64,000 bases of DNA, from positions 1-64,000 of the IMG/VR virus record IMGVR_UViG_3300028392_000045. One strand, 5' to 3'. Below are positions 3,001 through 62,734 of the stretch, piece by piece. The stretch comes from a virus. The notes beneath the pieces were generated by a model. The model made no database searches and was not told where the DNA came from. It saw nothing but the letters and a program-made list of their open reading frames with translations. The position numbers and the translations under genes were made by a program. Every line of letters begins with the position of its first letter. Position 1 is the first letter of the stretch.

Positions 3001-6000
3001 TTAGTAACATTTACTTCAAAGAATACATCATATTGACTAGGATCTCCAATAGTATTAAAGAATTCTTCAGTTGCTTGTACATCTGGAGTCCATTCTAAAA
3101 ATTCAGGAGGATTTACTTCTGGATAACCGTTTTTCTTAATAATTCTTCTGGAAGACCAAGGAGCATACTTATCAGGTTTCTGCATAAAATAAATCTGATT
3201 TTGTAGCATATAGTCTTTATACAGTTCTATAGCTGCAATAGTCTCGTTAGTCTGTTCAAAATCTTCTACTGTATAAGCTACCTCTAAAGGATTCTCATCT
3301 ATAGGCTCTTCTGATTCAGGTACTTGATCTGATAAAATATTCCATTCTATTGTGTCTCCTATTTCAAATTGACTTGATGGAGTATTTACCAGGTTTTGGT
3401 TAGTCAAAAGTTGTTCTATTTCTTTTACAAATTCTGAATTATTATATGCTTTTGTTTCATGATAAATTTCTGCACTTTCTAAATACTCATTACTTTCTAA
3501 TAGACTAGAATATTTATTGTCAAATATCTTTTTAAGTTTTTCAGGTATTGTATCCAATAGTGTATTGTCACCATATAATTTTCCTTGAAAATATTGCATT
3601 ACATAATCTGCAAAGTTTTCCTCTTGTAGTGATGCACCTGTTTCTTTGCCTTTACCACTTTTTTCTTGTGCTTCATAATGTTTTGCCATCCCTGTTTCAA
3701 GTGGCAATGTCCTAACATAATCTCTTTCTTCCTTAGTTAATTTAGTCCATTCGTGATGCCCTAATTCGTGGCTCATTGCATTTGTAACTTGCCTTATATT
3801 TTCAAATGCCGAATTATTATTTAAGTGTATCTTATTATCAGAATAATGGCCAAACATTTCTTCTACTGGTCTATTTTCTCCGTGTATTTTAGTTACCCCT
3901 AACTTATTAAGTACATTTAAGAATTTCTTATTTTCTAATAGTAGTTTAAAATGGTTTGGGTTTAAGTCTAAATCAATTAATGAATTACCTACTTTATAAT
4001 AACCACCTTCCGTATGATGCAAATCGTCCAATTCATAATCTGCTCTTTTTAGTTTTTTATCTCTTGAACTTAACTTACTCCATTCGGCTTTTGCTTTTTT
4101 AAAGTTTGATAAATGCTGTTCGTTACTAACAATACCTAGTTTTTTACCTATGTTTTCTATTAATTCTTTTATTTTTTTCCATAATGTAGGTTCTTTTCTT
4201 GCAATTTTTTCAAATACTTTAGAAGTATCATTTACATTATCTCCTAGTTCCTGTACTTCTCTCGGCAAGGATTGTAAATCCTGGCTGGCAGTAGCATCTA
4301 AAGGTGCTACATCAGTTTGATTATCAGTCGATGTCGTACCCTGACTGGTAGACGAACTTTTTAAGTCGTCTGCAAGGTCTTTAATAAAATTATCTTCATC
4401 CTCATTTGTATAGTCCTCCAGAACATCTGTATACTCTCCACGTTCCTTATTGTATTTATCAAGTACTTGTCTTACAACATCAATAGAATCTTGTACTAGA
4501 TTAGCAAGGATAGGATCTTGAATATCATTTAGGTAATCTTCAAAAGTATCGTAGTTAGCAGCAGGAGGTAAAGTCTCCATAGCTTCTTTAGCTAACTTAT
4601 TAAGTCTATCAAAAGCAGCTTGAGCTAATTCTTTATCTTCTAGTTTAGCAGCCTCACTAAGTTCTTGGTAGTCAGTAGATTTGCTTATATCACTTACAAT
4701 AGCTTGTTTAGCTTCTGCATTAAACTGCTCTTCTCCCTCTGGAGTATTAAGTTTATCAGCAGCTTTATCTAATTTGATAGCTTCAATTTCTAAATCTACT
4801 TTTTGCTTAACTAGATCTTTAGTAGCTTTTGGTACTTTAGGAACTTCAAAATCTCCATCTATTTTAAGCTGTTTAGCATCTGGATCTTTAAGAGTTTTTA
4901 AATACTCTTGACGTAATCCTTCTTCTGTAGCTCCTGTAATGTTAGCTAGTCTTTTAGTAATTTCAGGAGTAAGCTTAGTAGCTGCTTGTCTTTTAATATA
5001 GGCTTGAGTAGCTACATTGATAGGTAGACTATTTCCTTGATATTGTAGAGTAAGTTCTTGATTCTTTGCTAGAAGCTGTTCGTAAGCAGAAGTATCTTCT
5101 CCTGCTTCTTTTGCTTGATCTAAGAAACTTTGATGTAGGTTATTATTAATAAGCTCATGAAACTTAGTAAGCTGCATTTCATGTACTTTAGCAAAATCAC
5201 CTTTACTTTCTGCTTCTTGTACATTAGTATTATACTTAAATAAACTTTTAAGCTTATTAGCAGCTTGTTCAAATTTATCTTTAAGTACACCAGTAAGTCC
5301 AGTAGTTTGTTCTACTACAGCATCTTTAGCTGATTTACCTGCATTTTTAATTACATCTAAAGCAGAGTTTACATTAGCATCAGGTAAATTGTCTACACCA
5401 GTTTCACCTAGTTTACTAGACATTTTTTCTATAGCGGAACCAATCAAACTCATACCACCTCCAGATGCAGCACCTACTACAACTGAACTAAGAAATTCAG
5501 GATCAGAAAAGTATTCAGGAAAGTTTTGTACAACAGCACCTATAGTATTAAGTGCATTAGAATTCTTAGCTGCTTCTTTACCTACACCATATTGATAGCC
5601 TTCTTCAAATCCTTCTGAAGCAGCTACCTTGGCAGATTTATATAAACCAGATTCAGTTATTTTTTGAATTAAGGATTTCTTCTTACCTACTTGTCCTAAA
5701 GCATCAATAGCAGACTGTACGTTTCTACCTTTAAATAGAATATCGTACTCAAACATATCCGCTAACATCAAAGGTAAGTTAGCATAATAAGTATTAGCAG
5801 CTACTTTACCAGCTTCTTTTCTAGCACTTTCTTCAGTATATCCTTCAGCGATAAGAGATTTATAATGACTATCAGCATTACCAGCAGCTTCCATAGTACT
5901 TTCTAATACTCTGGAAATAGCACCTGAAGTAGCACTACGCATATTTAATGCACCACCTAATAGTTTACCTTCTGTAAGAAATTTACCTAGTTTAGGAATT

Positions 6001-6518
6001 TTAGAAAGAAATCCTACAGCAGCTCCAGTAGGAACCATAAGTGTTAAAGTAGATAAAACACTTGGAAGTTGGGCTTCCCAATATCTAGCAGAAAGTGGTT
6101 GGAATGGTTGGTCTGGATTAGTGTAAACGGGAAATTGCTCATTTAAAGCTTCTTTATTTTCCCTCATAGCCTTAGAAAGGAAGTTATCAAATTCTTTTTC
6201 AGCACCTACTAAAGCTTTACCATGTTGCTCAAAATCAAGCAAGTAGCCAAAACCTTCGAGAGTACCCAAACCTACCTCACCTAGAGATTGAACAAGTGCA
6301 TTCCCTAGTGCTTGAGTGTTAGTTTGATTTTGATACCGTAATTGCGCTATGTCATTAGGAGTGTGATACATTGTAACACCTTGATCATACTTCCCTAATT
6401 TTTGACCCGGAAGAACATTAGATCCAGTAAAGCCAGAATTTGGTGTGATACCAGCAATTACATCTAAAGAACTAATTCCATTTGGGTCAGAAGCTTCTTT
6501 AAGTCTTCCTTTACTCAT
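1..6518 (-). CDS. Giant virion cargo/ejection protein (>2170 aa, truncated at the window edge) with two HExxH zincin domains; may continue into a virion RNA polymerase
   Basis: ATG at 6518 (MSKGRLKEASDPNG...). The frame was spot-checked as open at several points down to position 3, and the ORF is missing from the track, consistent with no stop inside the window. Motifs: HELGH..EENFAD (3747-3770) and HEAWH..EEERADRF (1764-1778). Gly/Ala-rich amphipathic N-terminus. It lies downstream of the muzzle gene, as in crAss-like phages. Confidence 0.8.
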   Translation of the reverse strand, partial: MSKGRLKEASDPNGISSLDVIAGITPNSGFTGSNVLPGQKLGKYDQGVTMYHTPNDIAQLRYQNQTNTQALGNALVQSLGEVGLGTLEGFGYLLDFEQHGKALVGAEKEFDNFLSKAMRENKEALNEQFPVYTNPDQPFQPLSARYWEAQLPSVLSTLTLMVPTGAAVGFLSKIPKLGKFLTEGKLLGGALNMRSATSGAISRVLESTMEAAGNADSHYKSLIAEGYTEESARKEAGKVAANTYYANLPLMLADMFEYDILFKGRNVQSAIDALGQVGKKKSLIQKITESGLYKSAKVAASEGFEEGYQYGVGKEAAKNSNALNTIGAVVQNFPEYFSDPEFLSSVVVGAASGGGMSLIGSAIEKMSSKLGETGVDNLPDANVNSALDVIKNAGKSAKDAVVEQTTGLTGVLKDKFEQAANKLKSLFKYNTNVQEAESKGDFAKVHEMQLTKFHELINNNLHQSFLDQAKEAGEDTSAYEQLLAKNQELTLQYQGNSLPINVATQAYIKRQAATKLTPEITKRLANITGATEEGLRQEYLKTLKDPDAKQLKIDGDFEVPKVPKATKDLVKQKVDLEIEAIKLDKAADKLNTPEGEEQFNAEAKQAIVSDISKSTDYQELSEAAKLEDKELAQAAFDRLNKLAKEAMETLPPAANYDTFEDYLNDIQDPILANLVQDSIDVVRQVLDKYNKERGEYTDVLEDYTNEDEDNFIKDLADDLKSSSTSQGTTSTDNQTDVAPLDATASQDLQSLPREVQELGDNVNDTSKVFEKIARKEPTLWKKIKELIENIGKKLGIVSNEQHLSNFKKAKAEWSKLSSRDKKLKRADYELDDLHHTEGGYYKVGNSLIDLDLNPNHFKLLLENKKFLNVLNKLGVTKIHGENRPVEEMFGHYSDNKIHLNNNSAFENIRQVTNAMSHELGHHEWTKLTKEERDYVRTLPLETGMAKHYEAQEKSGKGKETGASLQEENFADYVMQYFQGKLYGDNTLLDTIPEKLKKIFDNKYSSLLESNEYLESAEIYHETKAYNNSEFVKEIEQLLTNQNLVNTPSSQFEIGDTIEWNILSDQVPESEEPIDENPLEVAYTVEDFEQTNETIAAIELYKDYMLQNQIYFMQKPDKYAPWSSRRIIKKNGYPEVNPPEFLEWTPDVQATEEFFNTIGDPSQYDVFFEVNVTKKSYIVTPDNVPIQLFVERDGKKIYIGQLQTTSKVKDKTDKGSLQLLRQKAFDFWVQGSGSKILGKTKIKYYHKGFYNTVPTHRPVVEALTQEEKDNFKIGIYTGHNEAYGSDFITNDSSILTREGVRTISGSVHIGKKSPTGGWVWINVTTQKLGDMPDLVDQLKSEFDLFVKASKEVAALPEEDKLKAVELAKKDDPRLTSLASLLLDEKAILARVRKIVRYKVKGKLEPDFNHKLILIKKFQTDGVFDVDKFIASRDLLNKKVQIDFKKIEDSDYVASIMNRLTTDIAVQPFINPFMTVPAGEDYIDEPVLQQEIKEEIPTEKIVLNIAARKRDTPKFMKVDKSRESAKKLSPNRAIAYLKRVLPNKYTVEILDGLIKVGNVEAYGMVHNSAVTLSKLAPEGVDYHEAWHIIEAILPAFQRKYISKIGTEEERADRFMEYKATHQESNSFLRRVFENILAFINDLVGYQATLEDIFQRIDNGYYKNFKPVTLPRMFSVSGLTRKQQQYLVNVYLNKVNSLLDLSDRKNVSKLINNDIKQNELLVFGVPTTDEGFGSPLYEFVLDILVNNPDNGVQLANQVLKYIRPDLQVGVSDEGNVEVSYTDKPTKGVLYASLLKDLGKRGYKIILERDTASLNPDVETDINEDDTIDIEEESTKEGWQEKASLRSPMEKLSKRIKQLIYSIETDVPDSLGLGFNLTYNGYETYSRLASVITDSIDVEDMKAKMESRIDPFFKSFMAYIKTKYANTEAVYTELFKALGDKNHPEYWMVNAAGLSGVEATEENKNSVKQRIKNLVNNVPYKGDLVNYLSQIGIEGLDLSDKLLVENLVKDIQNKKGDQVFKALENQISNTFLDSHLSVEGKKIYEIINGSYFGKLMTRLNRDFENTKKTLFSKDAVLSKLPIFRSKPGKRDFKFVMYGGYKDKSGNGFTYDHFTEPMFMETMYHMWEQQNVYPTPILSDSPNIIGTRYVIPEDVRGNMYKAIAELIHIEHARTLSK
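4263..4312 (-). repeat. Double-hairpin element copy, in-frame in the cargo gene
   Basis: Minus strand: ATGTA-GCACCTTTAGATGC-TACTG-C-CAGCC-AGGATTTACAATCCT-TGCCG (5-14-5-1-5-15-5). Confidence 0.8.
4325..4372. repeat. Degenerate double-hairpin element copy
   Basis: CAGTC-13nt-GACTG-G-TAGAC-14nt-GTCTG. Confidence 0.55.
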
Positions 6519-6524
6519 TGATTA

Positions 6525-8345
6525 CTATTGTTTTTTAGGAGCGTACTGCTCAAAAGCTGATTGTATATTATCTACATTATATTGAGCAGGATCTAGTTTT
6601 TCTTCTGCTAACGGTTTTCCATCAGCACCTACTTTAGTAGCTTTATAAAATTCTAAATCTACTCCAGTATAATTACCAAATTCATCTTTTTTAAAGATAG
6701 GTTTAGATCGGACTAATTCTGGATTTTTACCTTTAAATTGAATTTTATTCCAACCAGATATTTCTCCTGTTATTCTAGGCTGTAATAATCCTTTTAGTGG
6801 AGCATAGTGTGCTGCCTCTTCGTAGTTTACAGGTTCAACTACTACTTGACGAGCTTTACCATCAGTGTTTAATATAGCCATATAAGAACCAGGAAAAAAT
6901 CCATTTCCAGCTCCAGTAGTTCCATATACAAACAAATTTGATGCTCCTTTTACTTTTTTTACTTCACTAGAATTAACAAGTCTAGGAGCAGCATTGGGAG
7001 ACAATTCAGTCATTTTAAAATTCTTTAAAGCTCCTGCATCTTCTTGATTGTTTCCTACTAAAAAAGCAGTTTTTGATTTTTTTTCTTTATCAGATAACTC
7101 TACAGTATTCATTACCTTATTAGAGGTTTCTAAAAACTGATTATAAAATTTAACTACTTCTTTATTAATTTGTTGAGGAGATTTTCCAGTAGGATCAATT
7201 TGACGTGTTACTTGAGATAATCCTGGATGAGTTCTAAACACCTCTTGATCATTAGGTTTTTTAGAGTCTAGTAACTCATTAAATCCTTTAGTAGTATATA
7301 CTGGTAAATAAGAGTCAGTAGTTTTTGTTTGCGCACCTAAAGCTCCTACACTACCTACTTGGAATGTATTTTTAGTTTCACCTATCTGAACGTTACCATC
7401 TTTTTCTTTGAGTGGTTGTGCTCCAAAAGGACTAAGTCTAAATGCTTCAGTTAATATATGTAAATTTTCAGAAGGATTTTCTAAATCATATTTGTATTTA
7501 GTATTCTTTAAAGTATTCATTAGATCATAATCCTTATTACTATGCCAAGATACTTTGTCAGAATTAAAAGCATATTTATCAGCCGCATAATCAATAGCAG
7601 ATGTAATTCTACCTTGTGCTGCTTTATCTCCATACATTTCTTTCAACTGATTTACATAAGGAGCTAGTTCTGGATTATTAGGAAAAGCTTGGTAAAGAGA
7701 ATTTAGTATTTCATTCTTATCTACACTTTTACCAGAGATTTGCTCTATGTATTGACCATTAGCTGTCTTACGATAACCTTTAGAAAACTCTGTTTCTGCC
7801 CAACCTTTTACTAGACCATCAAAATAGTTATTTAAATCTACATCTTTAGCAGGAACATAACCTTGAAAAGTTTGCTTCTGACCATTATTACCATAAGTAG
7901 TAAAATCCTGTAAGGACTTTCTAACACTAAAATCTCTAGTATCTTTATTGATGTCTTTATTTTTAGACAGTTCGGTCATGTAATCATTAGCTCTTTTGTA
8001 GTTATCCTCAAAAGAATGAAATACTCCTCCAGGCTGTTTAGCTTCATATAAGAAACTATCTGCTTGCTTGAGTAGATTAATACCATCTGATACATTACCT
8101 TGCTTAAAAGCCTCTACAGCCTTATTCTTGTATTGCTCTAATGGTTTAATGTAGAGATCATTTACTTGTTGTTGATCATTATCTATATGTAAAGGTCTAG
8201 GTACTTTAGATAAAGCATCGTAACTAGTCTGCAAATAAGAAGACATTTTATCTACAACAGATAAGTCAGGTAAAATCTCTTGTGGATTATACTTATAGAT
8301 AGTAGGATCTAATTGAGCAAAATGCTGTCTGTACCTATTGATCAT
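6525..8345 (-). CDS. Putative virion cargo/ejection protein
   Basis: 606-aa ORF between the muzzle gene and the giant cargo gene; assigned by synteny with crAss-like phages. Confidence 0.55.
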   Translation of the reverse strand: MINRYRQHFAQLDPTIYKYNPQEILPDLSVVDKMSSYLQTSYDALSKVPRPLHIDNDQQQVNDLYIKPLEQYKNKAVEAFKQGNVSDGINLLKQADSFLYEAKQPGGVFHSFEDNYKRANDYMTELSKNKDINKDTRDFSVRKSLQDFTTYGNNGQKQTFQGYVPAKDVDLNNYFDGLVKGWAETEFSKGYRKTANGQYIEQISGKSVDKNEILNSLYQAFPNNPELAPYVNQLKEMYGDKAAQGRITSAIDYAADKYAFNSDKVSWHSNKDYDLMNTLKNTKYKYDLENPSENLHILTEAFRLSPFGAQPLKEKDGNVQIGETKNTFQVGSVGALGAQTKTTDSYLPVYTTKGFNELLDSKKPNDQEVFRTHPGLSQVTRQIDPTGKSPQQINKEVVKFYNQFLETSNKVMNTVELSDKEKKSKTAFLVGNNQEDAGALKNFKMTELSPNAAPRLVNSSEVKKVKGASNLFVYGTTGAGNGFFPGSYMAILNTDGKARQVVVEPVNYEEAAHYAPLKGLLQPRITGEISGWNKIQFKGKNPELVRSKPIFKKDEFGNYTGVDLEFYKATKVGADGKPLAEEKLDPAQYNVDNIQSAFEQYAPKKQ

Positions 8346-9685: not shown

Positions 9686-9687
9686 CG

Positions 9688-9732
9688 CATTAAAATTTTC
9701 AATTTTAACTTTCAGATCTAAAGATCCAAAAG
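9688..9732 (-). repeat. Degenerate double-hairpin element filling the intergenic space
   Basis: CTTTT-GGATCTTTAGATCT-GAAAG followed by TT-AAAATTGAAAATTTT. The 15-nt arm is identical to the copy at 13471; the central TGNCA is deleted. Confidence 0.65.
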
Positions 9733-9733
9733 A

Positions 9734-12700
9734 TTACATCTCTTTAAGTCTGTTACTAGAATTTGTCAAATCCAATATGATCTTTACATTATCAGTAGGA
9801 TTAAAGAACAACCGAATGTAAAAATACTTATCATTTATTGGAATTTGGTTCCATTGAGACATATTATAGTTAATATTTACAGGTACTTTGTCAGTAAAGT
9901 AATTATTTTTTATATCTGCCCAGTTCTTTGAGTATACTAAATTAGATGTACTTAAGTCTCTAATAGCTGCTATTCGATAATTTTGAGAAGCTGCTGTTAC
10001 TACTTTAGTTTGATTATTCCATCCTGTAGTATATAAAGGTTTTGGTATAAGTTTTTGTAAACCAGTAGATTGCTGTTTAGTATATACCATAAACCTATCA
10101 AAAGTAGGATAATCTACATCTTGTTCTCCTATTAAACTTTGTGCGTAATATTCTACAACTTCAAGATCAGATGTTTGCTGACTATGAATATTGTATTCTA
10201 CTATAAAGTCTTTTTTACTATTAAAAAATCTTTGATAGTTTTGAGAATCATGTTTCCAAATACTATTCCTACCTATTGTATTATCTCCAATGACATATAA
10301 GCCATCGTAGTCAGAAAACATTAGACTAGGAAAATAACTATGAAAAGAAATAAAGCTATCAAATATAAAAGAATAACTTATAGTATAACTTTTATTCTCA
10401 AAGTAGTTATTGAAAGTAAAATCTACTTGATAGTCATCCTTGTAATAAACTCCATTCTTTTTCTTAATAGTAGAATCTATCTGCTTGTAATCATATTTAG
10501 ATAATATAAGCCTTTTAAATCTAGGATCATAAGCTACTTGAATATATCCTTCTGTAATATTCAAAGGTAAATTCTCTTTGAACCATTGTTGACAGCCACT
10601 AGTAAAATCAGTCAATTCCTTAAAGCCATCAGAGAATAAGAATACCTGACCTGTTTGTGAATCTACAGTAACCCAACCAAATTCAGTAGTACAATGATCT
10701 AGGAATCCTAAACCACCACCAAATCCGTAATCTGTCTTGACCATCTGTGCAGGAGGTATACTTAAAAAATCTCCTGAACCTATATACAAAGCTCCTACAT
10801 CTGTATTAAGCTGTTGTGGGTTAGGAGACAGAGCAAATATGTTTTTAGTACTTCTTACTAGCAATCTATTTCTATCGTAATACAAAGCAGTAATAGGAGA
10901 AGTACCTACTGTAGTAAAATTTTCTGATAAATAAATTCTAAAATTATCTTTTGTCTCTTCAGAAAAAGAAGCTAAAGACCAGACTATTCTATTTTGAAAT
11001 TTATTACTACATAGATTACAATAGTTGTAAGTTAAAGGTACAGGAGGATATATCTTACCTAAGAAATGTTTTCGATAGTCTTGATTGTAATAATAATATT
11101 CTCCTAGAGTATCTGTACTATTTAGTGAGCTTAAAGTATTAAGTACTAAGTTTTTTAATTGTATAGCATCAAATCTAGGACTAATACCTGTAGAATCTAC
11201 TACAGCAAGTTTGTTTAAGTAGTAAGTTATTAAATCTCCACCAGTGTAAGTAAGAAATTGATTCAAACCATTTATTCGTAGTGAGAAGTTAATATCTGAT
11301 TCTACCCAATAAGGAGCTGTTTGCCCTTTGAATACATAGTCTGATTTACTAAATAATCCATTTCTATCTGTACCTCTAAAATAAATATTATGTACTTGGA
11401 ATGGAGTTATAAAAGTATCTCCATTATAAAAAGTAGCTGTTGTAGCTTTAATATCTGTATGTAGTAATTTATAGTTTAGTGTAGTTAAATTTTGATAAGG
11501 AGTAATAATTTGCTTCTTTAGAATATACTTATTAGTTCCTGCTACAACAGCTTTATAGTTAAGATTTAAGAAATTTACATTATTGGAGAAACTTAGATTT
11601 ACTAAAGTCTTATTCTGTTCATCAATAAATTCAGATAGCAAATCTATATAGTAAGAGTTATTTACTTTCTCGTATACTTCAGTTTGGTTACTGTATACAG
11701 GATTTAGAATTTCTGCTTGTACTCTTAGTTTTCTATTAATACCAGAAGGCAAAGCATAATCTGCATCTGTCTCACCTAATGAAGTAAGATCAATATTTTT
11801 TACTATAGAAATGTAGTCAGCTCTAATTGCTTTGTTTGCTAAATCTTCAGGAGTAAATACAGTAACTCTACTAGAGTTCTTTAGTGGCAAATTAAGTCTA
11901 TCAAACTCAATCCAAGTATCTCCTGAGTTAGCATCTAAAGATCCAGTAGCATAATTAGCATTTTGAAATAAAATACCTCCTGTGTTTACAGTTCTATTAT
12001 TAGGGTCTCTAGGTACATAAAGTAATCTATATCCTATAGTGCCTGTAGGAAGCGTTACAGTGGCTTTTACGCCTAGCTGAGTATTGATAGGTAAGTTTGC
12101 TTTACTAGGGAATCTATGATAGCGTACAGGCTTTCCTTGTAAGTCTCCATATATAAAATTACCATTACAGTCCTTGGTTGTAGGGTAAGTCTCATTAGTT
12201 TGATAATAGCCAAATCTACCATCTGGTCTTGCTGTAGAATATACTTTCCAATTGGGTAGACTTACATTATTACCTGATGTTACAGGATTAACTGTAAGGT
12301 ATTGTGCTTCTGATATAGGAAAGTTCTTTACTTGTAAGTCAGTAGAATCTGGTTCTACACCGGGAATATGAAACGCAGGAGAAAATGTATTATCTGAATA
12401 AGCATATTGTATAGCAAAAGCATAAATCTCATCAGATTGAAAAGTAGATTTTGCTTCATATTTGCTAATTGCTTGAGATGTCCATTCTAGTTTTACAGTA
12501 TTAGCAGCTCTTTGTAAAGTAGAAAAGTCTTTATAGTTACTACTTACATTAGCTCGTACAAGTCTTTTATCTACTATAGTTAAAGCTTGAGAAGTATCGT
12601 ACACTACAGGATCTACTAAAAGTGAGTCTATAGTAGATCTTAAAGCACCTGACAGTCCTGTATAAGTAAAAGAAATACTTTGTGAAGTAGGGATAAGATT

Positions 12701-13457: not shown

Positions 13458-13533
13458 CTGTTGGATCTTACTGTAAAAATTTTCAATTTTGACTGTCAGT
13501 CAGAGGTTTCACTTCTGACAGTAGATCTGACTG
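13458..13533 (-). repeat. Nested double-hairpin elements (inner copy 13471-13521 inside the loop of an outer arm)
   Basis: Minus strand: CAGTC-AGATCTA-[CTGTC-AGAAGTGAAACCTCT-GACTG-A-CAGTC-AAAATTGAAAATTTT-TACAG]-TAAGATCC-AACAG. Confidence 0.8.
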
Positions 13534-13556
13534 CTTGCCTTTAAATTATACTAAAA

Positions 13557-19817: not shown

Positions 19818-20999
19818 TTAAATAAAGCATTTTATTCTAACTGGTGCTACCACAGCACTCAATATTGAGTCAAAATCCTTTAAGGCTTCATCCCCAAGTA
19901 CGAGTCTACAAATATTAAGAGCACCATTGCAATCAGCATTTATATACTGATTTTTAGAAGTTCTGAAAAGCCCTCTCTTAACTCTTTTACCAAGATACTT
20001 TTCATGCTTCATAATAGGCTCTAAATCTAAAGCACTACATTTTGATGTATATGCTTCTTGTGTCTCGATAAAAAATTTACCTTCCAACTGTGCTTTATAC
20101 CTTATTTTTTCTATAAGGGTAGCGTGTGGGATTTGAGTAAACTTTCTATTACTATCTTTTCCTATATTAATATTTTGTTTCCAATGTATATTTTTTCCTA
20201 TTATAATTTTTGAAATATTATTAACATTACAAAAGTTTATTATTTCTCTACTAGTTTTATGAATATAATCTTTTATTTTATTATATCTTTTATATGATAA
20301 TTTTTTAATTCTTTTACTTGAATAAATTCCTTTTAATAACTTGGATTGCAATAATGCTTTACGTTTATTATAATATTCATTAATAGATTTTAAAGGCTTT
20401 CCATTAATTATAAATGCTTTGCCGATATTTGAAACACAAGTAACTAAATTATTAAGACCTACATCTATTGATAACCAATTATCGTTTTCTATTAAAAGTT
20501 TTTCCTCTTTTGTATAAATAAATTCTACTACAAAGTGATTTGATTTTGGTATTACTCTACCATAATCAATTTTAGTTAAATTAGTTTTTATAGGTAGAAT
20601 ATTTAACATCTTTGGAAAATGCACATAGCCTTCTTTTATTTTTAATTGACTAGATGTAAATCTTAATTCAGATAACTTTTTTTTATATTTAGGCATTTTA
20701 GGAAAGAATAAAAAATTACTTGAATCTTTATAATAAGATTTTTTAGCTGCTTTCCAAGAACTAATATTTCTAAATAGTATTCTTACTATTTGTTGAGATG
20801 TATTTGAAGGTAAAGCTCTAAATGTAGGTTCATTAAATTTAGCATAAACACCTGTTAATTCATATTCACTAAACTTTTCAATATTGCCAATCATGGATTG
20901 TTTCCAATAGTAAAGAGATTGGTTATAAAGCTCTTTAGCCTTTATACACCATTCTTTCCATTCATTTGTTTTAACTATATGTTGCTCTGTTAATTGCAT
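19818..20999 (-). mobile_element. tnpB: Solo TnpB RNA-guided endonuclease (IS200/IS605/IS607 superfamily), no transposase
   Basis: LYN...SQQ N-terminus, RuvC-I SIDVGLNN, IIIGK..WKQ, EAYTSK and RuvC-III INADCNGALNI; markedly more AT-rich than the flanks. Confidence 0.9.
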
Positions 21000-47326: not shown

Positions 47327-47971
47327 TTATTCTTTATCTTTCACAGTCAAAGGCTTCGCGTTTGACAGGACTGCAACAATCTGTCTAGTAGGATTCAATT
47401 GCAAATATCCAAAATGTGGATTGTCAGGTGAAGTAGGTGGCTCAAAATCTAACCAATCTGTATTGGTATATCCATACTCTAAGTGAGGTGGATGATCTAC
47501 AGAAGGTTTAATAGCCATAATAGAATCTTGAGTAACTTGAACTACATCTCCTACTTGGAAACCACAATCATAAGTTGGTTTAGCTACTACAACTCCTTTT
47601 CTGGTAAAAGGCCAAGGAGATTCCATAGTTTGTCTTACACCAATACCATTCTGAGTAACTTCTTTCATAGAAATTTTAGGTTCTATGATTAAACCAGCTT
47701 TAGTCTTTTCAGGTACAATGTGGTACATTCTTACAATAACAGAAGACAAAGGTAGGATAGAACTATACTGTTCATCTAGTGTAGTTAGATTATTATTATA
47801 GTCTTCAATCTTCGTCTCGTTCAGTTCCCAGTAACTCTTTCGGTTTAGATCTATTAAAGGTACTGGAGTCGCCGACCGGTGCTGTTCGGTTATGTAAAAG
47901 CTTCTTTGCTGATTTGGATCGGGAAAGTGATTCTCTGCGTAATCCCGAATTGATTCTGAACTTCCTTTCAT
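47327..47971 (-). CDS. GroES-like co-chaperonin domain protein
   Basis: LPLSSVIVR...EKTKAGLIIEP...KGVVVA...FQVGDVV; probable start at MKGSS. Confidence 0.65.
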   Translation of the reverse strand: MKGSSESIRDYAENHFPDPNQQRSFYITEQHRSATPVPLIDLNRKSYWELNETKIEDYNNNLTTLDEQYSSILPLSSVIVRMYHIVPEKTKAGLIIEPKISMKEVTQNGIGVRQTMESPWPFTRKGVVVAKPTYDCGFQVGDVVQVTQDSIMAIKPSVDHPPHLEYGYTNTDWLDFEPPTSPDNPHFGYLQLNPTRQIVAVLSNAKPLTVKDKE

Positions 47972-52973: not shown

Positions 52974-53054
52974 AATTGTAAATTTTTATTGTGATTTAAC
53001 AATGTAAATATACTATTTATAATTACAACATCCAAATTTAATTACAAAAAAGAT

Positions 53055-54194: not shown

Positions 54195-54575
54195 ATGAAT
54201 ATGAATGGCAACTCGATAACTTTTTGGATTATGAGTACTAGAACATGCCAAATTGTGTATATTCATGGAACTAAGTCTATTACAGGTGAAGAAGTAATTA
54301 ATGAGAAAATCATTATTGCAAAACTTTCAGCCGTACAGACATTAGGTAAAAAATACACAGAAAAATCTCCTTTCAATCCTAACATGCAAGACCATTACAT
54401 TCTACCAATGAATTGTACTGTGGAAGTAAAAGATGTAGCAAATCAAAAAGTAATCTGTAAAGATACTTTGAAAGGTGCTCAAGCATATGGGTATTGTTAT
54501 CCAGATGATAAAAAGCTTTTACTTCAAAACATTAAGGAATGTTTAAAGGGGCAACAAAATTTGTTTTCTTATTAA
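54195..54575 (+). CDS. Hypothetical protein
   Basis: ORF; the true start may be MSTRTC. Confidence 0.55.
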   Translation: MNMNGNSITFWIMSTRTCQIVYIHGTKSITGEEVINEKIIIAKLSAVQTLGKKYTEKSPFNPNMQDHYILPMNCTVEVKDVANQKVICKDTLKGAQAYGYCYPDDKKLLLQNIKECLKGQQNLFSY

Positions 54576-54641
54576 GGCAGTCGTAGGCCGAATTACGACA
54601 GTAAATACAATCCCAGTTAGTAATTTTATTAATTAGTGTTG

Positions 54642-54673
54642 TGCCAGTCTGCTTGAGGGTAGGCTGGCTTTTT
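54642..54673 (+). terminator. Rho-independent terminator
   Basis: GCCAGTCTGCT-tgag-GGTAGGCTGGC-TTTTT. Confidence 0.75.
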
Positions 54674-54859
54674 AATTATGCAAGTAATTAGAATGCTTGC
54701 TTTTTTATTTTTATTATATAAATCAGAAATTATGAGAATATATCACAATTCAAATTATTTTAGTTTTGCAAACCATAAAAATATTGGATTTGGATTAGGA
54801 GCTTCTAATTTTTATGTAAGGCATACATTTGATAAAAAATCAATTAATATCATACTACT

Positions 54860-54909
54860 CTGACAAACGCGAAGCATTTGTCTGACAGTAATTTTATCAA
54901 AAATTACAG
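54860..54909 (+). repeat. Double-hairpin element copy
   Basis: CTGAC-AAACGCGAAGCATTT-GTCTG-A-CAGTA-ATTTTATCAAAAAT-TACAG. Confidence 0.8.
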
Positions 54910-54956
54910 GAGTTTGGTGATTACACAAGGAAAGCCGAATTCTGAACCTATTTGTA

Positions 54957-55006
54957 CTATCAGATCTTTAGATCAGATTGCCAGTCAGGATTTCCAATCC
55001 TTACAG
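54957..55006 (+). repeat. Double-hairpin element copy
   Basis: CTATC-AGATCTTTAGATCA-GATTG-C-CAGTC-AGGATTTCCAATCCT-TACAG. Confidence 0.8.
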
Positions 55007-55032
55007 ACAGATTTACCTGAATATTTTCATGT

Positions 55033-55490: not shown

Positions 55491-55763
55491 AAATCGTACA
55501 TATTGTGTATACTAGCTCTTTTTCTATTTCTAAAAACTTTATTGATTTCATGGAATTAAAGCATTTAGAGGAACCAACTACTAGATGCACTCAAAAAATT
55601 ATATTTACATGACAAATACAGAATTTAAGAAGTTGTTACATATTCAAGAAGACTCACTAGAAAGCAGAGTACTTGAGTATATGACATTTTTCTTTTTAGC
55701 ACAGATCAAAATTAATCACTTAGCCGAGCTGATGGCACAGGCAAAATTCATAAATCTATTATA

Positions 55764-56483: not shown

Positions 56484-56517
56484 TCATTTTTTTATAATTT
56501 AGCTAAATATTGTTATT

Positions 56518-56793
56518 ATGACTACTGAAGCAATCGGGTATCTAACCCAAAATGAAGTTGGACAATTGGTTCTAACTCCTGGTTCACCAACTAAACACAT
56601 GTTGGATCAACCAGTAATGGAAGGCATTGTTAGAAAAGACATCGTTGGTGATGTTATCTTCTTTCGTGTTCTTCAAGACGGAACCAATGTAATTCACCCA
56701 CAACATGGTGATTTGCGTTTGGATGCTGGTAGCTACTGCGCTACTATTCAAGTTGAGCAACTTCTAAATAAAGAAGTTCTAGCATTCGACTAA
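56518..56793 (+). CDS. Small His-motif protein, likely partner of the upstream gene
   Basis: HPQHGDL.L..G.Y....QVE. Confidence 0.55.
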   Translation: MTTEAIGYLTQNEVGQLVLTPGSPTKHMLDQPVMEGIVRKDIVGDVIFFRVLQDGTNVIHPQHGDLRLDAGSYCATIQVEQLLNKEVLAFD

Positions 56794-56882
56794 TTTTTTT
56801 GCATTTTTTGTTAATTTCCTATTCAGGGGGTTGGTTACATTTGTAGTCAGCCCCTTTTTATTACAAAAATTCAATCAATCAT

Positions 56883-57755
56883 ATGGTAAATACTAAATGG
56901 ATGGATAAACGACTAACATTCATTCAAAAACAAGCTCGTGGTGCAAAAGAATTTCAGATTCCTGTAAAACCAGACCTTGGCTTTTATAAAGGAGGTATCT
57001 GGACACCATCTGAATTTTTACCTATTCCTGGCGTTAAGAGTGTCCTGGACACAGATGTTAAGCTGATGAACCACATGGTTCCGTTTAACTTCATCTGGCC
57101 TTTCTTGATTTTAACAGGACGTGATCTTCCAGATGATTCTTCATGGGGATATGGCTCATTTGCACCTGGACAGGAAGAATCAGACGAAGAGAAAAAGACT
57201 ATGCCTGTGTCTAGCTTTTCTATGTTGTCTCACTTGTTTTTTGTGAATTACCTCAATATTGTGAATGGTAAGAACCCTCCATACTTGATTAAGAAAATGA
57301 AGGATGACAGCTATTGGGGCTGGTTAAACCCTTCTATTAGAGACAATCAAGGAACTTTCATGGTTCCTACTGTACCCGATTGGAAAGCTGCAACTGCAAA
57401 CTTTCCTCTGAATATGGATAAAGAGGAGTTTGCAAAGTATGTTTGGTTTTCAGAAAATAGTGGTGGATGCCCTCATCCGGTAGCAGAATTACTACCTTGG
57501 AACATGAACGAGGGACTTGCTGGCCAGGATGGTAAAACAGGAATATTCGATCTAGTTGGTAATCTATGTGCTACAGTTGTTGAGACTGATATGCCATTTA
57601 TCACTAACGCTCTTTTGAAAGAACATTTCCCAGAAATTAAGCAAGCTGCTAATAACCTAACTTGGCAGGATGTTTTTGATGCTCAACTGTTAGGTAAAGC
57701 TCGTCCTGTAGGGACTGTAAATTGGCTTGGTTTAGGTGCTGATTTCATATTCTAA
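56883..57755 (+). CDS. Hypothetical protein
   Basis: 290-aa ORF, Trp/Pro-rich. Confidence 0.75.
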   Translation: MVNTKWMDKRLTFIQKQARGAKEFQIPVKPDLGFYKGGIWTPSEFLPIPGVKSVLDTDVKLMNHMVPFNFIWPFLILTGRDLPDDSSWGYGSFAPGQEESDEEKKTMPVSSFSMLSHLFFVNYLNIVNGKNPPYLIKKMKDDSYWGWLNPSIRDNQGTFMVPTVPDWKAATANFPLNMDKEEFAKYVWFSENSGGCPHPVAELLPWNMNEGLAGQDGKTGIFDLVGNLCATVVETDMPFITNALLKEHFPEIKQAANNLTWQDVFDAQLLGKARPVGTVNWLGLGADFIF

Positions 57756-57825
57756 CTGACTTAGTTATATTCAATTAAATATAAACCTCTATATTTGAGG
57801 TCATTTATTCACCAAATTTTAACTT

Positions 57826-58302
57826 ATGATTATTTTATGGATCATGTTATCTTCTTTTTTGGTGGAAGAAAAGCCTCAAACATATGTGGCAGATCTTCCT
57901 GAGTTTCTTGTTAGTGCTAAATACCCAACTAATGGTAAAGTGGCATTATTAGCCCGTTTGATTAATGCAGAAGCAGGAGGTGAACCTATTCAAGGTCAAT
58001 ATGCCGTAGCTTCTGTAGTACTAAACAGAATGGAATATAAAAAAGCTTCTATAGCTAGTATTGTATTTCAGTCAGGGCAATTCGACGGTGTTAGATCAAA
58101 AAGGTTTCGGCACTATGACCGTTACCAATACATAATTGCTTACAAAGTTCTTATATGTAAGCAAAGAACAATTCCTAGTTCTGTACTATATTTCCATAAC
58201 AAGAAAACTAGTACAGATACAGGATGGGTTGCAGCTCTTAGTAAGTATGAATGGATGACAATTGGTAGACATACTTTTTGTCATTCAAAATATCTTATTT
58301 AG
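57826..58302 (+). CDS. SleB-like cell wall hydrolase (Hydrolase_2)
   Basis: LLARLINAEAGGE, AVASVVLNR, GQF, LYFHN and IGRHTF motifs; hydrophobic N-terminus. Confidence 0.92.
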   Translation: MIILWIMLSSFLVEEKPQTYVADLPEFLVSAKYPTNGKVALLARLINAEAGGEPIQGQYAVASVVLNRMEYKKASIASIVFQSGQFDGVRSKRFRHYDRYQYIIAYKVLICKQRTIPSSVLYFHNKKTSTDTGWVAALSKYEWMTIGRHTFCHSKYLI

Positions 58303-58538
58303 ATTTCTGTTTTGATTAATTTAGTGGATTTTTTTGAGAAGGAGATGTAAAAAGTCTCCTTTTCTTTTACTAATCAAAAATTATATAACATGAAGTGCAA
58401 ATTCTGTAATCAAAAAATGACAAAATCTTGTCAGAATAGACAAGCAGCTAATTCTTGTGGGTTTAAGGCTAAAAAGGAGGGTAACAACAAAAAGTCTCTA
58501 AAAGAAATTAATAGAGATGCAAAAAATAAAACAAGGCC

Positions 58539-58962
58539 ATGAAAATAATTGACTTTTTTGTTACAGATGCATTTTTAGTAGATTATGGAGTACTTTGTCC
58601 CGACTTATCTAAATATGCTCATCTAAATATTAAAATAAAATCCATTTTTGATGTGTTTGAAATCTCATCAGATGGGATTATAGAAATTTCAGATGTAACG
58701 AGCAAAACAATTATACTAATATGAAATTATGTTATTTCTTTCAAGCTGCAAGATTTATGAAACCTTATAATGAGTCTTCTCTTTCTAGGATATACAACAT
58801 AGTAGATGATGTTGATCCTGTAGATACAAAAAATATAATATGCATTTAAATATGAAGTATCAATTTGCTAGATTTAGAAGTTATAAAGATTTTCTAAATT
58901 TAGAAATTAGTCTAGTGAAAAACGTTGATAATTTAGACACAAAAAATATAATCTTAATATGA
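58539..58962 (+). CDS. Three tandem microproteins (58539-58724, 58721-58849, 58852-58962)
   Basis: Manual translation; C-termini SKTIILI, TKNIICI and TKNIILI. Confidence 0.6.
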
Positions 58963-59125
58963 TTCAATTAAACTCAAACACATTTTTTGCTCCATGTGAT
59001 TTAGTAGACATGGATACCAATAAAAAAATAGGGGAAGATTATGTAGAATTTACACTTCCTACTATATTTGAAGACAGTTTATGTCATGAAATTTTTTATC
59101 CTGAATTCAGACTAATTAAACGTAT

Positions 59126-61273
59126 ATGGAAATTCTCTTCATTGGGAATCAGTTATTCAATGAATGCAAGACAAGCACAATTGAAGAAGCTGTCAGCTAT
59201 TTCTCAAACCAGTCTATAATAGGTCTGGATATAGAAACCAGTAGAAAATACAAAAAAGGTACATTTCCTGAAGAAGTATATAGACCAGGATTAGATCCAT
59301 ATACTTCAGTTGCCTGTCTGATGCAGCTAGGGACTTTAGAAAAGGTTTTTGTAATAGATACTCGTGTTATTGACATAAGTGCTTTAAAACCGATCCTAGA
59401 GTCTCCTAGCATAGTTAAAGTAGGTCATAATCTACAATTCGAATACAAACACATTCTACATAATTTTTGTATTAAACTAGATAACATCTGGGATACCATG
59501 ATATGTGAAAAAGTATTGTATAATGGTTTAGGTTTATCTAATAGTCTTGAAGCATTAGCTAATAGATATTTAGGTGTAGAATCTATAGAGACTATTAATC
59601 TATTTAATGAAGAAAAAGAAGATAAACACTCTGTCGAACCTTTAGATTCGACTGACAGTCTGGATCTCCCATCCAGACAGTATATAGATAAATCAACTAG
59701 ATTAGGTTTTATCAATATAGGAGATAGCCCATTCACCATAAAACAAATTATGTATGGTGCTGATGATATTGTATATCCTCTTAAAATTAAGAAAATTCAA
59801 GAAAAAGGAAGAGAAGTTGGAGGAGTAATTTGGAATCCAAAAAATGCTTTCAAATTAGAAAATGCTACTGTATTAGTTTTAGCAGATATGTCACTTAGGG
59901 GTATTGGTTTTTCCAGAACTGTATGGTTAGATATTCTTAGTAAACAGTTACCTTTATTTGAGAAAAGAAAACAAATTCTTAATAAATGGGTAGAAGATAA
60001 TGTACCTAAATTTTGTAGATCAGGTGATTTATTCTCTTCAATTCCTACTTGTGCTGTAGATTGGCAATCACCTACCCAAGTTGTAAAGCTTTTTAAGTAT
60101 TTAGGAATATGTCCTAGAGAGGTATCTAAATCTACTAAAAAGTTAGAATACACAGTAGGTGCTAAAGAACTTCTAAAGACCATGAGAGCTGAATTACAAG
60201 AAAGCTATAGTTATAATAAGGATAAACCTATAGATAGCTTAGAAGAGCTTAAATTGGCTTATTTGCTATTTAAAAAATCACAAATGTCTTGTACTACTTT
60301 TGGTGCAAGCTGGTTAGATTATGTACATCCTATTACAGGAAGAGTACATTCTAACTTTAATCAGTATATGAACTCCTCTCGATTATCATCAAATAATCCA
60401 AATATACAAAATTTACCTCAAGGAGAATACAGAGATGCATTTATTCCTTCACCTTTAACTGACTTTATATCAGTAGATTATGCAAGTCAAGAGGTAAGAA
60501 TTTTAGCTGATGTTTCTGCTAATCCAGTAATGGAAGATTTCTTTGTAAATGGTTCAAAAATATTTGGGGACGATATGCATTCATTTTCTGCTACTCAAAT
60601 GATGAGAGCAAAGACAGGTGATGATACTATTGTAGTTTCTAAGAAATCACATCCCAAAGAAAGAAATATATCTAAGTCGTTAACCTTCTCATTAAGCTAT
60701 GGAGGTTCAGCGCATTCAATCAAATTTAAGTTAGGATTAGAGTTAGAAGAAACTGAAACATTTATTCAGTCTTTTTTTGATGGCTTTCCTGGACTTGAAG
60801 AAGATTTTACAAATAGAAAGAAATTCGCCATAGATAATGGCTATATAATATTAGACAAAGCAACAGATAGACGCTACTTTTTTCCTCAGTATGAAAAAAT
60901 GAAAAAAGCAGAAGAGTTAGCTAAATCTTACTACACAAGAGATATGTCTGCTGAAGAAAGAGCAGAAGTTAAATTAATACCAGAAGTAAAAGAAGCTTGG
61001 AAAACTTTTTTTACTCTAAAAGGAAAGCTAGAAAGAAGAGCATTAAATTATGGAATTCAAGGTCTTGCTGCCGGAATGACAAAATTAGCTTTAGTACTAC
61101 TATATAAAGCAGGAATAGCACTTGTTTCTTGTGTACATGATGAAATATGTGCAGAAGGAAATGAAAAAGATGCAAAAACTATAGAAAGACTGATGATAGA
61201 GGCAGGAAAATACTTTTGTAAACGAGTTCCAATGGGCGCAGAAGCATCTGTAGGAGATAAATGGATACATTGA
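59126..61273 (+). CDS. polA: DNA polymerase family A with 3'-5' exonuclease
   Basis: GLDIET, GHNLQFE, YGADD, SRLSSNNPNIQN, DYASQEVRIL, R..SK.L.F...YG, NYGIQG and VHDEI motifs. Confidence 0.95.
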   Translation: MEILFIGNQLFNECKTSTIEEAVSYFSNQSIIGLDIETSRKYKKGTFPEEVYRPGLDPYTSVACLMQLGTLEKVFVIDTRVIDISALKPILESPSIVKVGHNLQFEYKHILHNFCIKLDNIWDTMICEKVLYNGLGLSNSLEALANRYLGVESIETINLFNEEKEDKHSVEPLDSTDSLDLPSRQYIDKSTRLGFINIGDSPFTIKQIMYGADDIVYPLKIKKIQEKGREVGGVIWNPKNAFKLENATVLVLADMSLRGIGFSRTVWLDILSKQLPLFEKRKQILNKWVEDNVPKFCRSGDLFSSIPTCAVDWQSPTQVVKLFKYLGICPREVSKSTKKLEYTVGAKELLKTMRAELQESYSYNKDKPIDSLEELKLAYLLFKKSQMSCTTFGASWLDYVHPITGRVHSNFNQYMNSSRLSSNNPNIQNLPQGEYRDAFIPSPLTDFISVDYASQEVRILADVSANPVMEDFFVNGSKIFGDDMHSFSATQMMRAKTGDDTIVVSKKSHPKERNISKSLTFSLSYGGSAHSIKFKLGLELEETETFIQSFFDGFPGLEEDFTNRKKFAIDNGYIILDKATDRRYFFPQYEKMKKAEELAKSYYTRDMSAEERAEVKLIPEVKEAWKTFFTLKGKLERRALNYGIQGLAAGMTKLALVLLYKAGIALVSCVHDEICAEGNEKDAKTIERLMIEAGKYFCKRVPMGAEASVGDKWIH
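59631..59680 (+). repeat. Double-hairpin element inserted in-frame in polA
   Basis: CTGTC-GAACCTTTAGATTC-GACTG-A-CAGTC-TGGATCTCCCATCCA-GACAG, the most symmetric copy. Confidence 0.85.
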
Positions 61274-62089
61274 AAATTATACTTTACTATCATGGGACGG
61301 ATAACAAGACTTCAATGCAATTTGCGATGTTGGATGTTAGAGAAAGTGTAGCAAGATTGGAAGCAAAAGTGAGAAATAAAAAACAAAACTTAATAATAGT
61401 ATGAAATTGGTAGGACAACTTGGTGATGTCAGTTACAATAGTAGCAAATACATGAATAGACCAGATAATTTAAGATATTTGTCTAATTTAGGGATTACTG
61501 TAGATTATGTTTTATCTCAATTTATGTTATTTATATGAGCTTAATAGTAAATTATTGTGGAGGAAGATTTACTACTAAAATGGAATCAGAATTTCAATTA
61601 CATAGTTGTTGGTGGGATGAAAATCCTATTTTTGTATATGATTATACAGGCCAATTTATAAACTTAATTTATTAACTTTTAAACTAAAGGTTATGTACTT
61701 TTTCCTAATTGAGTATACTATTGGACAAGAATGGAAACATAAAACTGTTAGAGCAGATAATGCTTTTATGGCTAAAATGAAAGCTCCATTTGGTGCTAGG
61801 AATATTAAAGCTTATAAGGTAGCGTCATGAATTTATTAAACCACAATCTTGGGTCTGCTTATCATAACTGCTATGATCAAGTAAAATACATATTTTATAA
61901 AAGTTCTAATTTGCCACCTTATTATCCTAGCAATAGTACTCAAATCTTAATTTTATCAAAGTACAATATTTTTACTTTCGTGATTGCTACTATAATATGA
62001 TAGAAGGTATGAAATATCCTTGTCCCATTGATTATTACATCCACAAAAACAAATACTATATTTCAAATCAAATAATCTTAATAACATGA
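61261..62089 (+). CDS. Array of coupled microprotein ORFs (61261-61404, 61401-61538, 61535-61675, then three more up to 62089)
   Basis: Manual translation; ATGA overlaps. Confidence 0.55.
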
Positions 62090-62568
62090 AAAAATTTTTC
62101 TTTTTTATTCTAATGTTGCTTACTGTAACTACAAAAGCACAGTTTGGAGATGTATCTGTTATCCTTAAACAGAATTTCAAGGATTCAACTGTTACTATGG
62201 AGTGGCCTTTCAAGATTGATACTCAGAAATATGCGGTAACGTATACTTACATCCAAGATGAGATCAAGAATGATACTGTCGCTTCTAAACGTATTTTAAA
62301 GTGGAATACTACACTTCCTTATCGTAAATTTAAATTATCTACTTATCGTTCAGTTATTCTTATGTATGTAGATATTTATCTTAAAGGAGCAAATTCTGAA
62401 GATCCAAATACCTACACATATGAAAAAACATTGTACAGTAAAACATATGATGTATATGCTGCTCGTAATGGGTATTTTGAAAAAGAAGTGGGTAAAGATG
62501 GTAGTAAATTGCTCTATTTTTATCCTGAATTTAATAGAGTTCCCTCTAAATTAAGAGGAGAAAAATGA
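62086..62568 (+). CDS. Secreted/periplasmic protein
   Basis: MKKFFFFILMLLTVTTKA|Q signal peptide. Confidence 0.75.
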   Translation: MKKFFFFILMLLTVTTKAQFGDVSVILKQNFKDSTVTMEWPFKIDTQKYAVTYTYIQDEIKNDTVASKRILKWNTTLPYRKFKLSTYRSVILMYVDIYLKGANSEDPNTYTYEKTLYSKTYDVYAARNGYFEKEVGKDGSKLLYFYPEFNRVPSKLRGEK

Positions 62569-62582
62569 TTTTGGTGTTTATT

Positions 62583-62734
62583 CTGTCGAACGTGAACTGT
62601 AGAAATTTTACATTTCTACTGTCTATCAAATCTACTGTTGAACCTTTAGATTCAACTGTCAGTCAAAAGCTACGCATTTGACAGAAAAATTTAATAGAAC
62701 CTTCGACTGGCAGTAAGTTTACTTAAACTTACAG
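62583..62734 (+). repeat. Three nested double-hairpin elements
   Basis: Outer 62583-62734, middle 62597-62697, inner 62635-62684. Confidence 0.8.

Follow-up and report, generated by a model that had tools for sequence, protein, structure and literature searches.

Short double hairpins conserved in fold rather than sequence: a probable gene-less mobile element in a small clade of crAss-like phages

What are short double hairpins doing in the dense genome of a phage, and why do their stems keep pairing while the stem sequences differ? We address this question for the IMG/VR virus record IMGVR_UViG_3300028392_000045 (hereafter G000; 97,264 bp, 32% G+C), the first 64 kb of which constitute the window analyzed here. 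The sequence-only reading of this window had described about ten double-hairpin copies and had taken them for an apparently undescribed phage element that could be a non-autonomous mobile unit or a signal. This interpretation is supported by the comparison of filled and empty sites among related phages and by the nesting of copies within one another, and we propose, with a probability of roughly 0.7, that the copies are those of a miniature mobile DNA element that carries no gene and is restricted to a small crAss-like phage clade. The relatives used for the comparison are a complete IMG/VR genome of 103.8 kb (G001), which is syntenic with G000, two contigs obtained from an IMG/VR motif scan (L100 and L137), which are closer to G001 and share about 88-90% DNA identity with each other, and a fourth relative (L183). 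All relatives compared with G000 are distant from it: the nearest polymerases are 67% identical, and the proteins of G001 show 30-70% identity.

The building block of the family is a 24- or 25-nt hairpin with CTG feet, that is, an 18-19-nt hairpin placed between two CTG trinucleotides. In the usual mobile form, two such units lie head to head around a one-base spacer, giving a 50-51-nt double of the general form CTG-(18/19-nt hairpin)-CTG-N-CAG-(18/19-nt hairpin)-CAG. The narrower consensus proposed at first, CTGTC..GACTG-N-CAGTC..GACAG, describes only the copy at 59631; the stem pairs quoted with it are all correct. When position k from the 5' end is matched with position k from the 3' end, the pairing runs from the base through a C-G pair, a T.T mismatch, six pairs, a 1x1 mismatch at position 9 and two pairs to a three-base loop. 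Within the foot, the T.T mismatch is conserved, and the third pair, G-C, covaries to A-T or T-A; the mismatch at position 9 is frequent and mostly C.A. Units differ at their tips. Type B units carry the 1x1 mismatch followed by two pairs with a GNA triloop, type A units carry one pair closed by a TTTA loop, and the remaining units possess a perfect 7-8-bp stem. On its complementary strand, a unit shows CAG..CAG feet and an A.A mismatch; a double therefore presents one and the same arrangement whichever strand is read.

Our analyses show that this fold has been kept by compensatory changes while the stem sequences differ. Pairs were counted in the gapless alignment of type B units (A2; 13 units from three phages), because MAFFT misplaced a gap in the mixed set of 24- and 25-nt units (A3). 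All 117 of 117 cells form standard pairs, and each of the nine pairs varies on both sides, i.e., by compensatory changes; none of 500 shuffles reached this level of pairing and compensation, and controls with slid partners paired in 33-42% of the cells. Seven of the nine pairs belonged to the search criteria, hence they do not constitute independent evidence, whereas the two mini-stem pairs lay outside these criteria and are formed in every one of the 13 units, four or five types of base pair being seen at each. In the same alignment, the T.T mismatch and the loop G are invariant and the loop A is near-invariant, the G..A loop positions likewise not having been search criteria. The covariation on which the sequence-only reading rested is strong. 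Moreover, near-identical modules occur at non-orthologous sites: the units at 47344 of G000 and 12558 of L100 match at about 20 of 25 positions, in phages whose proteins are merely 40-60% identical.

The copies are also far more numerous than expected by chance. A strict scan of the whole G000 record for CTG (or CAG), a hairpin with at least five Watson-Crick pairs and the repeated trinucleotide returned 12 units, all inside the window (the lowest at 13.5 kb), and 11 of them are members of the family. Dinucleotide-preserving shuffles (n = 300) gave 0.74 +/- 0.87 units with a maximum of four, about 16-fold fewer. Three strict head-to-head doubles were observed, as compared with none in the shuffled sequences and none with any other trinucleotide flank, all 64 flanks together yielding 97 hairpins. 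Seven doubles fold as two hairpins with z values from -2.1 to -5.6. No described family matches: Rfam gave no hit at the gathering threshold on either strand of the 64-kb window, and literature searches turned up no account of such elements, either in crAss-like phages or in other tailed phages.

The window holds five canonical doubles. The double at 13471-13521 (minus strand, 51 nt) consists of a GAA-triloop unit (13497-13521) and a perfect-stem unit (13471-13495) and scores 31.5 bits with the covariance model; it splits the apical loop of an outer 25-nt single unit on the plus strand (13459-13535, made up of 13459-13470 and 13522-13534). Within a long non-coding stretch, the 50-nt double at 54860-54909 (plus strand; 35.3 bits, z -4.4) combines a type B unit with the loop core GCGAAGC and a unit with a perfect 7-bp stem. 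The 51-nt double at 54957-55007 (plus strand, z -2.3) has the variant foot CTA..TTG and joins a TTTA-loop unit with a unit that is almost the same as the second hairpin in the 4263 copy; its part at 54982-55006 scores 20.2 bits. The cleanest double (59631-59680, plus strand, 50 nt, z -5.6) lies in frame in DNA polymerase A, at residues 169-186, and the canonical double at 62635-62684 (plus strand) is the innermost part of a 152-nt complex of three nested doubles at 62583-62734.

Two further doubles, on the minus strand, are degenerate. The copy at 4263-4312 has degenerate feet (ATG..CTG / CAG..CCG) and folds into two hairpins (z -3.7), the first with the CCTTTAGA loop, and the variant double at 9688-9739 dispenses with the CTG feet and consists of a 10-bp TTTA-loop hairpin and an 8-bp GAA-loop hairpin (z -4.0), both of which it has in common with the 13471 locus. 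Two single units lie on the minus strand as well. The type B unit with a GAA triloop at 47344-47368 is the best match of the covariance model (36 bits), and the unit at 54578-54601 lies 3 nt beyond the stop codon that ends the gene at 54195-54575, with two canonical terminators downstream of it. The copies listed by the sequence-only reading are present at their coordinates. However, the copy at 4325-4375 (minus strand) is doubtful and was not counted, as its second hairpin is irregular (a 5-bp stem with a 13-nt loop; z -1.8) and its region shows no insertion or deletion relative to the orthologue; the copies at 62583-62734 are nested rather than placed side by side; and the two single units and the outer unit split by the 13471 double had been missed. 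The recurrent loop CCTTTAGA/TCTTTAGA reads on the sense strand in five of five copies of the window, as had been noted, but in the relatives the TTTA-type hairpin occurs in antisense as well. A 21-nt hairpin at 12340-12360 (minus strand), within the gene for a 1240-aa structural protein, resembles a type A unit whose loop is shortened and whose foot has one mismatch, and may be a decayed copy. The part of G000 between 64 and 97 kb contains no copy of the element.

Support for the mobile interpretation comes from orthologous loci, where whole doubles are present in one phage and absent from another. A double of L100 (10831-10881, 51 nt) is missing from L137, although the flanks are about 88% identical; at this junction the stop and start codons of L137 stand one base apart, L183 is empty with a 4-nt overlap, and G001 possesses a different double a few bases away. 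In L100, the terminal codons of the upstream gene, including its stop, come from this element, whereas G001, L137 and L183 share the ancestral ending; hence, insertion is the parsimonious direction. A second double of L100 (12530-12582) forms an exact 51-nt, 17-codon in-frame insertion relative to the well-aligned orthologue of a small gene in G001. L181/L182 have an element at a third site that is empty in L183; counted between conserved anchors, the two states differ by a net 51 nt. In G001, a TAG stop and the following ATG start are separated by exactly one 51-nt double and nothing else.

The copies of G000 show the same pattern. The double in the DNA polymerase falls where the closest polymerase homologues, including that of G001, have a 13-aa gap, and the double at 4263-4312, translated within a 3619-aa virion protein, coincides with a 13-aa insertion relative to the G001 orthologue. 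The single unit at 47344-47368 lies in the last codons of a 249-aa gene and coincides with an 11-aa C-terminal insertion relative to three orthologues. Both junctions flanking the 1240-aa structural gene are filled in G000: the intergenic double at 13471-13521 lies upstream of this gene, at a junction that measures 3 nt in G001, and the double at 9688-9739 occupies a 48-nt stop-to-start gap where the orthologous genes of G001 overlap. The elements occupy three kinds of places: tight stop/start junctions, stretches encoding permissive linkers of proteins, where they lie in frame, and the loops at the tips of other units.

The last of these locations gives a further indication of how the element may move. 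Removal of 13471-13521 regenerates a canonical 25-nt CTG-footed unit with its previously split loop restored. Similarly, the complex at 62583-62734 (plus strand) decomposes stepwise into three well-formed doubles of 50-52 nt: the inner double (62635-62684) interrupts a unit of the middle double (62597-62634 and 62685-62698) at its apical loop, and the middle double in turn interrupts the GAA loop of a type B unit that belongs to the outer double (62583-62596 and 62699-62734). Three insertions have thus hit apical loops, which together offer only a few dozen bases as a target in the 97 kb of the genome; the element therefore very strongly prefers its own hairpin tips. Because the reconstruction yields canonical unit lengths with no duplicated bases to be deleted, there is no clear target-site duplication where the target can be reconstructed, and neither a consistent duplication nor a target motif was found. 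TA precedes the element somewhat above expectation, but this is not a rule. An 8-nt direct repeat that flanks the 62583 complex is within chance for the region.

Absence of target-site duplications, together with stems that differ from copy to copy, would also be expected if the hairpins were by-products of palindrome-forming errors of replication or repair, i.e., local inverted duplications in which the pairing is purely mechanical. Such errors, however, do not account for the fixed length of 24/25 nt, for the T.T foot, the position of the internal mismatch and the recurrent loops (CCTTTAGA, GNA triloops) conserved in three phages, or for near-identical modules at unrelated sites; moreover, whole 51-nt doubles appear as units, and the stems are not copies of their own flanking sequence. 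The conserved non-palindromic features already largely refute this explanation, and we regard it as extremely improbable.

A more substantial case can be made for cis-acting RNA signals, such as intercistronic mRNA stabilizers, processing sites, sites bound by a phage protein or insulators that decouple the translation of adjacent genes, with dispersal being secondary. Many copies lie directly after stop codons or before start codons, and the type A or B unit of asymmetric doubles is on the sense strand in eight of eight cases. The conserved loop motifs and mismatch positions, the sense-strand G.T wobbles of some stems (e.g., at 9688 and in mini-stems of G001) and the one gene junction that bears an element in two diverged phages fit such a role as well. 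On the other hand, single units occur in both orientations, and wobble pairs show no consistent preference for either strand, the position-9 mismatch corresponding to a wobble when the opposite strand is read. At the same junction, close relatives have simply abutting genes and no element, and the elements at the shared junction differ in sequence and exact position, pointing to independent insertions. In addition, a processing or termination signal would be costly inside the DNA polymerase and the giant virion protein, where copies are found. The phage has canonical intrinsic terminators of its own (20 found versus 5.7 expected; e.g., 54643, 54680 and 62748), and these exist downstream of the units; hence, the units are not the phage's terminators, and none of them appears in the list returned by the terminator scan (G+C-rich stem plus T run). 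These terminator hairpins, G+C-rich with T runs, stand just downstream of element clusters on the plus strand (54643-54700 and 62748-62779), and the one at 62748 includes a GGAGG run. We therefore consider it unlikely that RNA signaling is what primarily explains the family. The sense bias could reflect an RNA role, a link to the direction of replication, or selection on tolerance, and, by analogy with the repetitive extragenic palindromes (REPs) of bacteria, mobility and an RNA signal can coexist in the same element.

The fold might also serve the phage directly in single-stranded DNA, as a hairpin promoter for the virion RNA polymerase (as in phage N4), as a primase or single-strand initiation site, or as an element of an origin. 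Short G/C stems capped by GNA triloops are highly stable in DNA form (d(GCGAAGC) mini-hairpins), and CTG is the initiation triplet of E. coli DnaG; both points favor such signals, as do the clusters near the strand-switch region (54.6-55.0 kb) and before the microprotein array at 62.6 kb. Furthermore, the crAss-like virion RNA polymerase gp66 of phage phi14:2 transcribes single-stranded DNA, and its early promoters have no common motif (10.1101/2020.03.07.982082); an enzyme that uses single-stranded templates and whose promoter motif is not known would be compatible with hairpin promoters. However, no copy precedes the large early microprotein arrays at 79-85 kb, a terminator-like hairpin directly follows the 62.6-kb cluster, the orthologous sites of close relatives are empty, with no element in the 10 kb of L183, and copies located 0-4 nt from start codons leave no space for a transcript leader. 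An N4-type promoter is a short template-strand hairpin with a 3-nt loop, placed just ahead of early transcription starts; GNA triloops are present in the phage element but cap a longer, mismatched hairpin, and some copies lie inside late genes. A function of this kind thus seems very unlikely to us. Among the alternatives in which the hairpins act as signals, a terminator, a virion RNA polymerase promoter and a replication signal gained no support, while an effect at the RNA level keeps some weight.

If the copies are indeed mobile, the enzyme that moves them would act in trans. The window had been thought to hold no recombinase or HUH enzyme; this is correct for Y1/HUH enzymes, but the window does encode a TnpB protein (IS605 OrfB; 393 aa, with OrfB_IS605 and Cas12f1-like TNB domains) at 19818-20999 on the minus strand. 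This solo TnpB is wedged between structural genes with very short flanks, is not accompanied by TnpA and is absent from G001; as a mover of the elements it was rejected, since G001 carries elements and no TnpB. The suggestion that an HUH or tyrosine recombinase might co-occur elsewhere in the genome was not borne out, as none scored above threshold in the whole of G000. Neither G000 nor G001 yielded a Y1/HUH transposase (PF01797) above the cut-off, and in G001 it is absent altogether; a tyrosine recombinase or integrase was found in neither genome, and a GIY-YIG enzyme or a reverse transcriptase did not exceed the threshold in the whole genome. The sole weak candidate is a sub-threshold, IS200-like ORF of 101-109 aa at 80396-80725 of G000 (plus strand; L176 16396-16725), with 16.4-16.9 bits in Pfam and an E value of 0.008 for phrog_2577; we rejected it because neither an HUH motif nor a PDB relative nor any homologue was found for it, and its predicted structure, which is of low confidence with a mean predicted local distance difference test (pLDDT) score of 63, is all-helical. 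Both phages encode, at corresponding positions, a conserved small stand-alone HNH protein (85 aa) that matches endonuclease-VII-like PHROGs (G000 83579-83836, plus strand, L176 19579-19836; G001 69632-69880, minus strand). It may be a structure-specific nuclease, but nothing links it to the elements.

Several observations weigh against mobility and lower our confidence in it. No transposase or recombinase (Y1/HUH, integrase, GIY-YIG, reverse transcriptase) is recognizable; most copies differ strongly in stem sequence, unlike those of a recent burst of a typical miniature inverted-repeat transposable element; the complete sense bias of the asymmetric doubles and the many copies placed exactly at gene ends also fit a selected RNA role; and insertion, as opposed to precise deletion, is polarized only by parsimony. 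Nevertheless, we favor the mobile element, and propose that its folded single strand would be recognized by a structure-specific enzyme acting in trans, either encoded by the host or corresponding to an unrecognized phage protein, which may cut at hairpin tips. The fold would then be maintained by selection on mobility and not on phage fitness. Copies would survive only where the dense genome tolerates them, which would account for their location at junctions and in frame within genes, and once inserted they may additionally act as mRNA hairpins. A more specific version, in which a phage- or host-encoded enzyme reads the fold only and cuts and joins single-stranded DNA at hairpin tips, would amount to a new transposition system that makes no duplication, but it is, in our judgment, doubtful; the features that such an enzyme would read are the T.T foot, the internal mismatch and the GNA or TTTA tip.

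How widely is the element distributed? Hits of the covariance model are confined to G000, G001 and L100/L137: G001 carries four doubles (1948, 4659, 7880 and 102619) and one single unit within a gene, L100 carries three doubles in 13 kb and L137 one double, and the model found no element in more distant crAss-like loci. Neither the exact type A motif nor the strict double pattern had a match in IMG/VR. In the GTDB representative genomes, the strict double pattern gave nine scattered single matches in unrelated taxa, approximately the number expected by chance, which gives no support to a repeat family with these feet being widespread in bacteria. In JGI metagenomes, two matches to the type A plus CAGT pattern were obtained, neither with pairing or homology, and a scan of 151 sampled Bacteroidota genomes with covariance model R1 yielded no hit at E <= 0.001, a weak test because only about 51 candidates were scored per genome. 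Hits in a few related phages, together with chance-level scans elsewhere, indicate that the family is confined to a small phage clade.

The element resembles several known systems but is a member of none. REPs and the bacterial interspersed mosaic elements (BIMEs) that they form are short imperfect palindromes of 20-35 nt mobilized by RAYT, a Y1 transposase (PMC2817692). They share with the phage element a mismatch-based asymmetry, occurrence as singles or inverted doublets (here 24/25-nt hairpins with a T.T mismatch, head to head), palindromy kept by complementary mutations, a mostly intergenic location at 3' ends and species specificity. However, they begin with the head GT(A/G)G, whereas the phage units start with CTG followed mostly by T, GTAG occurring in few units and by chance; their copy number often exceeds 100 per genome, as against about 12-16 units in G000; they are extragenic, whereas at least three phage loci lie inside coding sequences; and no cognate RAYT gene flanked by repeats is present in G000 or G001. 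The one-base spacer of the phage doubles and the far greater diversity of stems within one genome set them apart as well.

The element is also close in kind to the double-hairpin elements (DHEs) in the mitochondria of Allomyces and other fungi (Paquin, Laforest and Lang 2000, as cited in PMC2800124). As characterized in that citing account, DHEs consist of two adjacent small hairpins of conserved structure, dispersed in a compact genome, with mobility deduced from presence or absence in close relatives, and with neither flanking duplications nor an element-encoded enzyme, all of which can be said of the phage element. The likeness is one of kind only, since DHEs are organellar and no sequence relation exists; the phage element is further distinguished from DHEs, as portrayed there, by its defined foot (C-G, T.T, G-C), its one-base head-to-head spacer and its insertion into its own loops.

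In-frame insertion into genes, with translation as an extra peptide in tolerant regions, recalls the Rickettsia palindromic elements (RPEs). These are 100-150 bp long, reside in a bacterial chromosome and have copies alike in sequence, whereas the phage elements measure 25 or 50-51 nt and are conserved in structure alone. Integron attC sites are likewise intergenic, keep a fold with extrahelical or mismatched bases over variable sequence and are recognized as folded single strands, but the unit alignments contain no R-box GTTRRRY core and no single long bottom-strand hairpin, neither G000 nor G001 has an integrase gene, and phage copies also lie inside genes. The hairpin-dependent, single-strand, duplication-free transposition of IS200/IS605 elements and their gene-less derivatives, the palindrome-associated transposable elements (PATEs), would fit the phage element, and G000 does have a TnpB. 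Nonetheless, the end hairpins of IS200/IS605 have the same orientation, whereas the phage units are inverted; TnpA is missing, no target tetranucleotide is conserved, and G001 has elements and no TnpB.

As for the phage itself, the gene layout and proteins of G000 identify it as a divergent crAss-like phage, with a long minus-strand block of structural genes, a plus-strand replication block and giant virion proteins. Its family A DNA polymerase (59126-61273, in the replication block) shares less than 30% identity with known crAss-like phage polymerases, and its nearest relatives in a search of 5.8 billion proteins are only 67% identical; no near-identical phage record was found. The 3619-aa giant ORF spans the ends of the record (window 3-6518, minus strand, continuing at 92923-97264), which shows the record to be circularly permuted; the orthologue in G001 measures 3166 aa and has no counterpart to a stretch of about 270 aa that follows residue 764 of the G000 protein. 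Among the relatives, a large structural gene encodes 766 aa in the L100 and L183 contigs versus 1118 aa in G001, residues ~204-550 being absent, and the gene upstream of it varies (L100 (L182) 5911-6600), encoding 229 aa in L100 and being replaced by other ORFs in L183 and G001. Arrays of microproteins, i.e., overlapping ORFs of 40-60 aa with ATGA-type overlaps, are located on the plus strand at 61261-62000 and 62798-63641 of the window and at 79345-84648 of G000, and hairpin elements are absent inside them. ARAGORN detected no tRNA or tmRNA in the window.

Small gene-less palindromic repeats are known in bacteria and mitochondria, and we found none described in tailed phages. What sets the present family apart is its size of 25 or 50-51 nt, the demonstrable conservation of fold and not of sequence, and the fresh insertion polymorphisms at about 88% identity. 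It shows that very compact phage genomes can accommodate elements of this kind between stop and start codons and, as in-frame insertions, within a DNA polymerase and a virion protein, and the strong preference for the tips of its own hairpins offers a concrete handle on the mechanism. The elements can mislead gene calling and can be mistaken for riboswitch-like RNAs or terminators; conversely, they are usable as markers of recent divergence in crAss-like phages. Should a hairpin-specific enzyme indeed move them, its substrate would be among the smallest mobile units known, and in-frame copies would add peptides to essential proteins.

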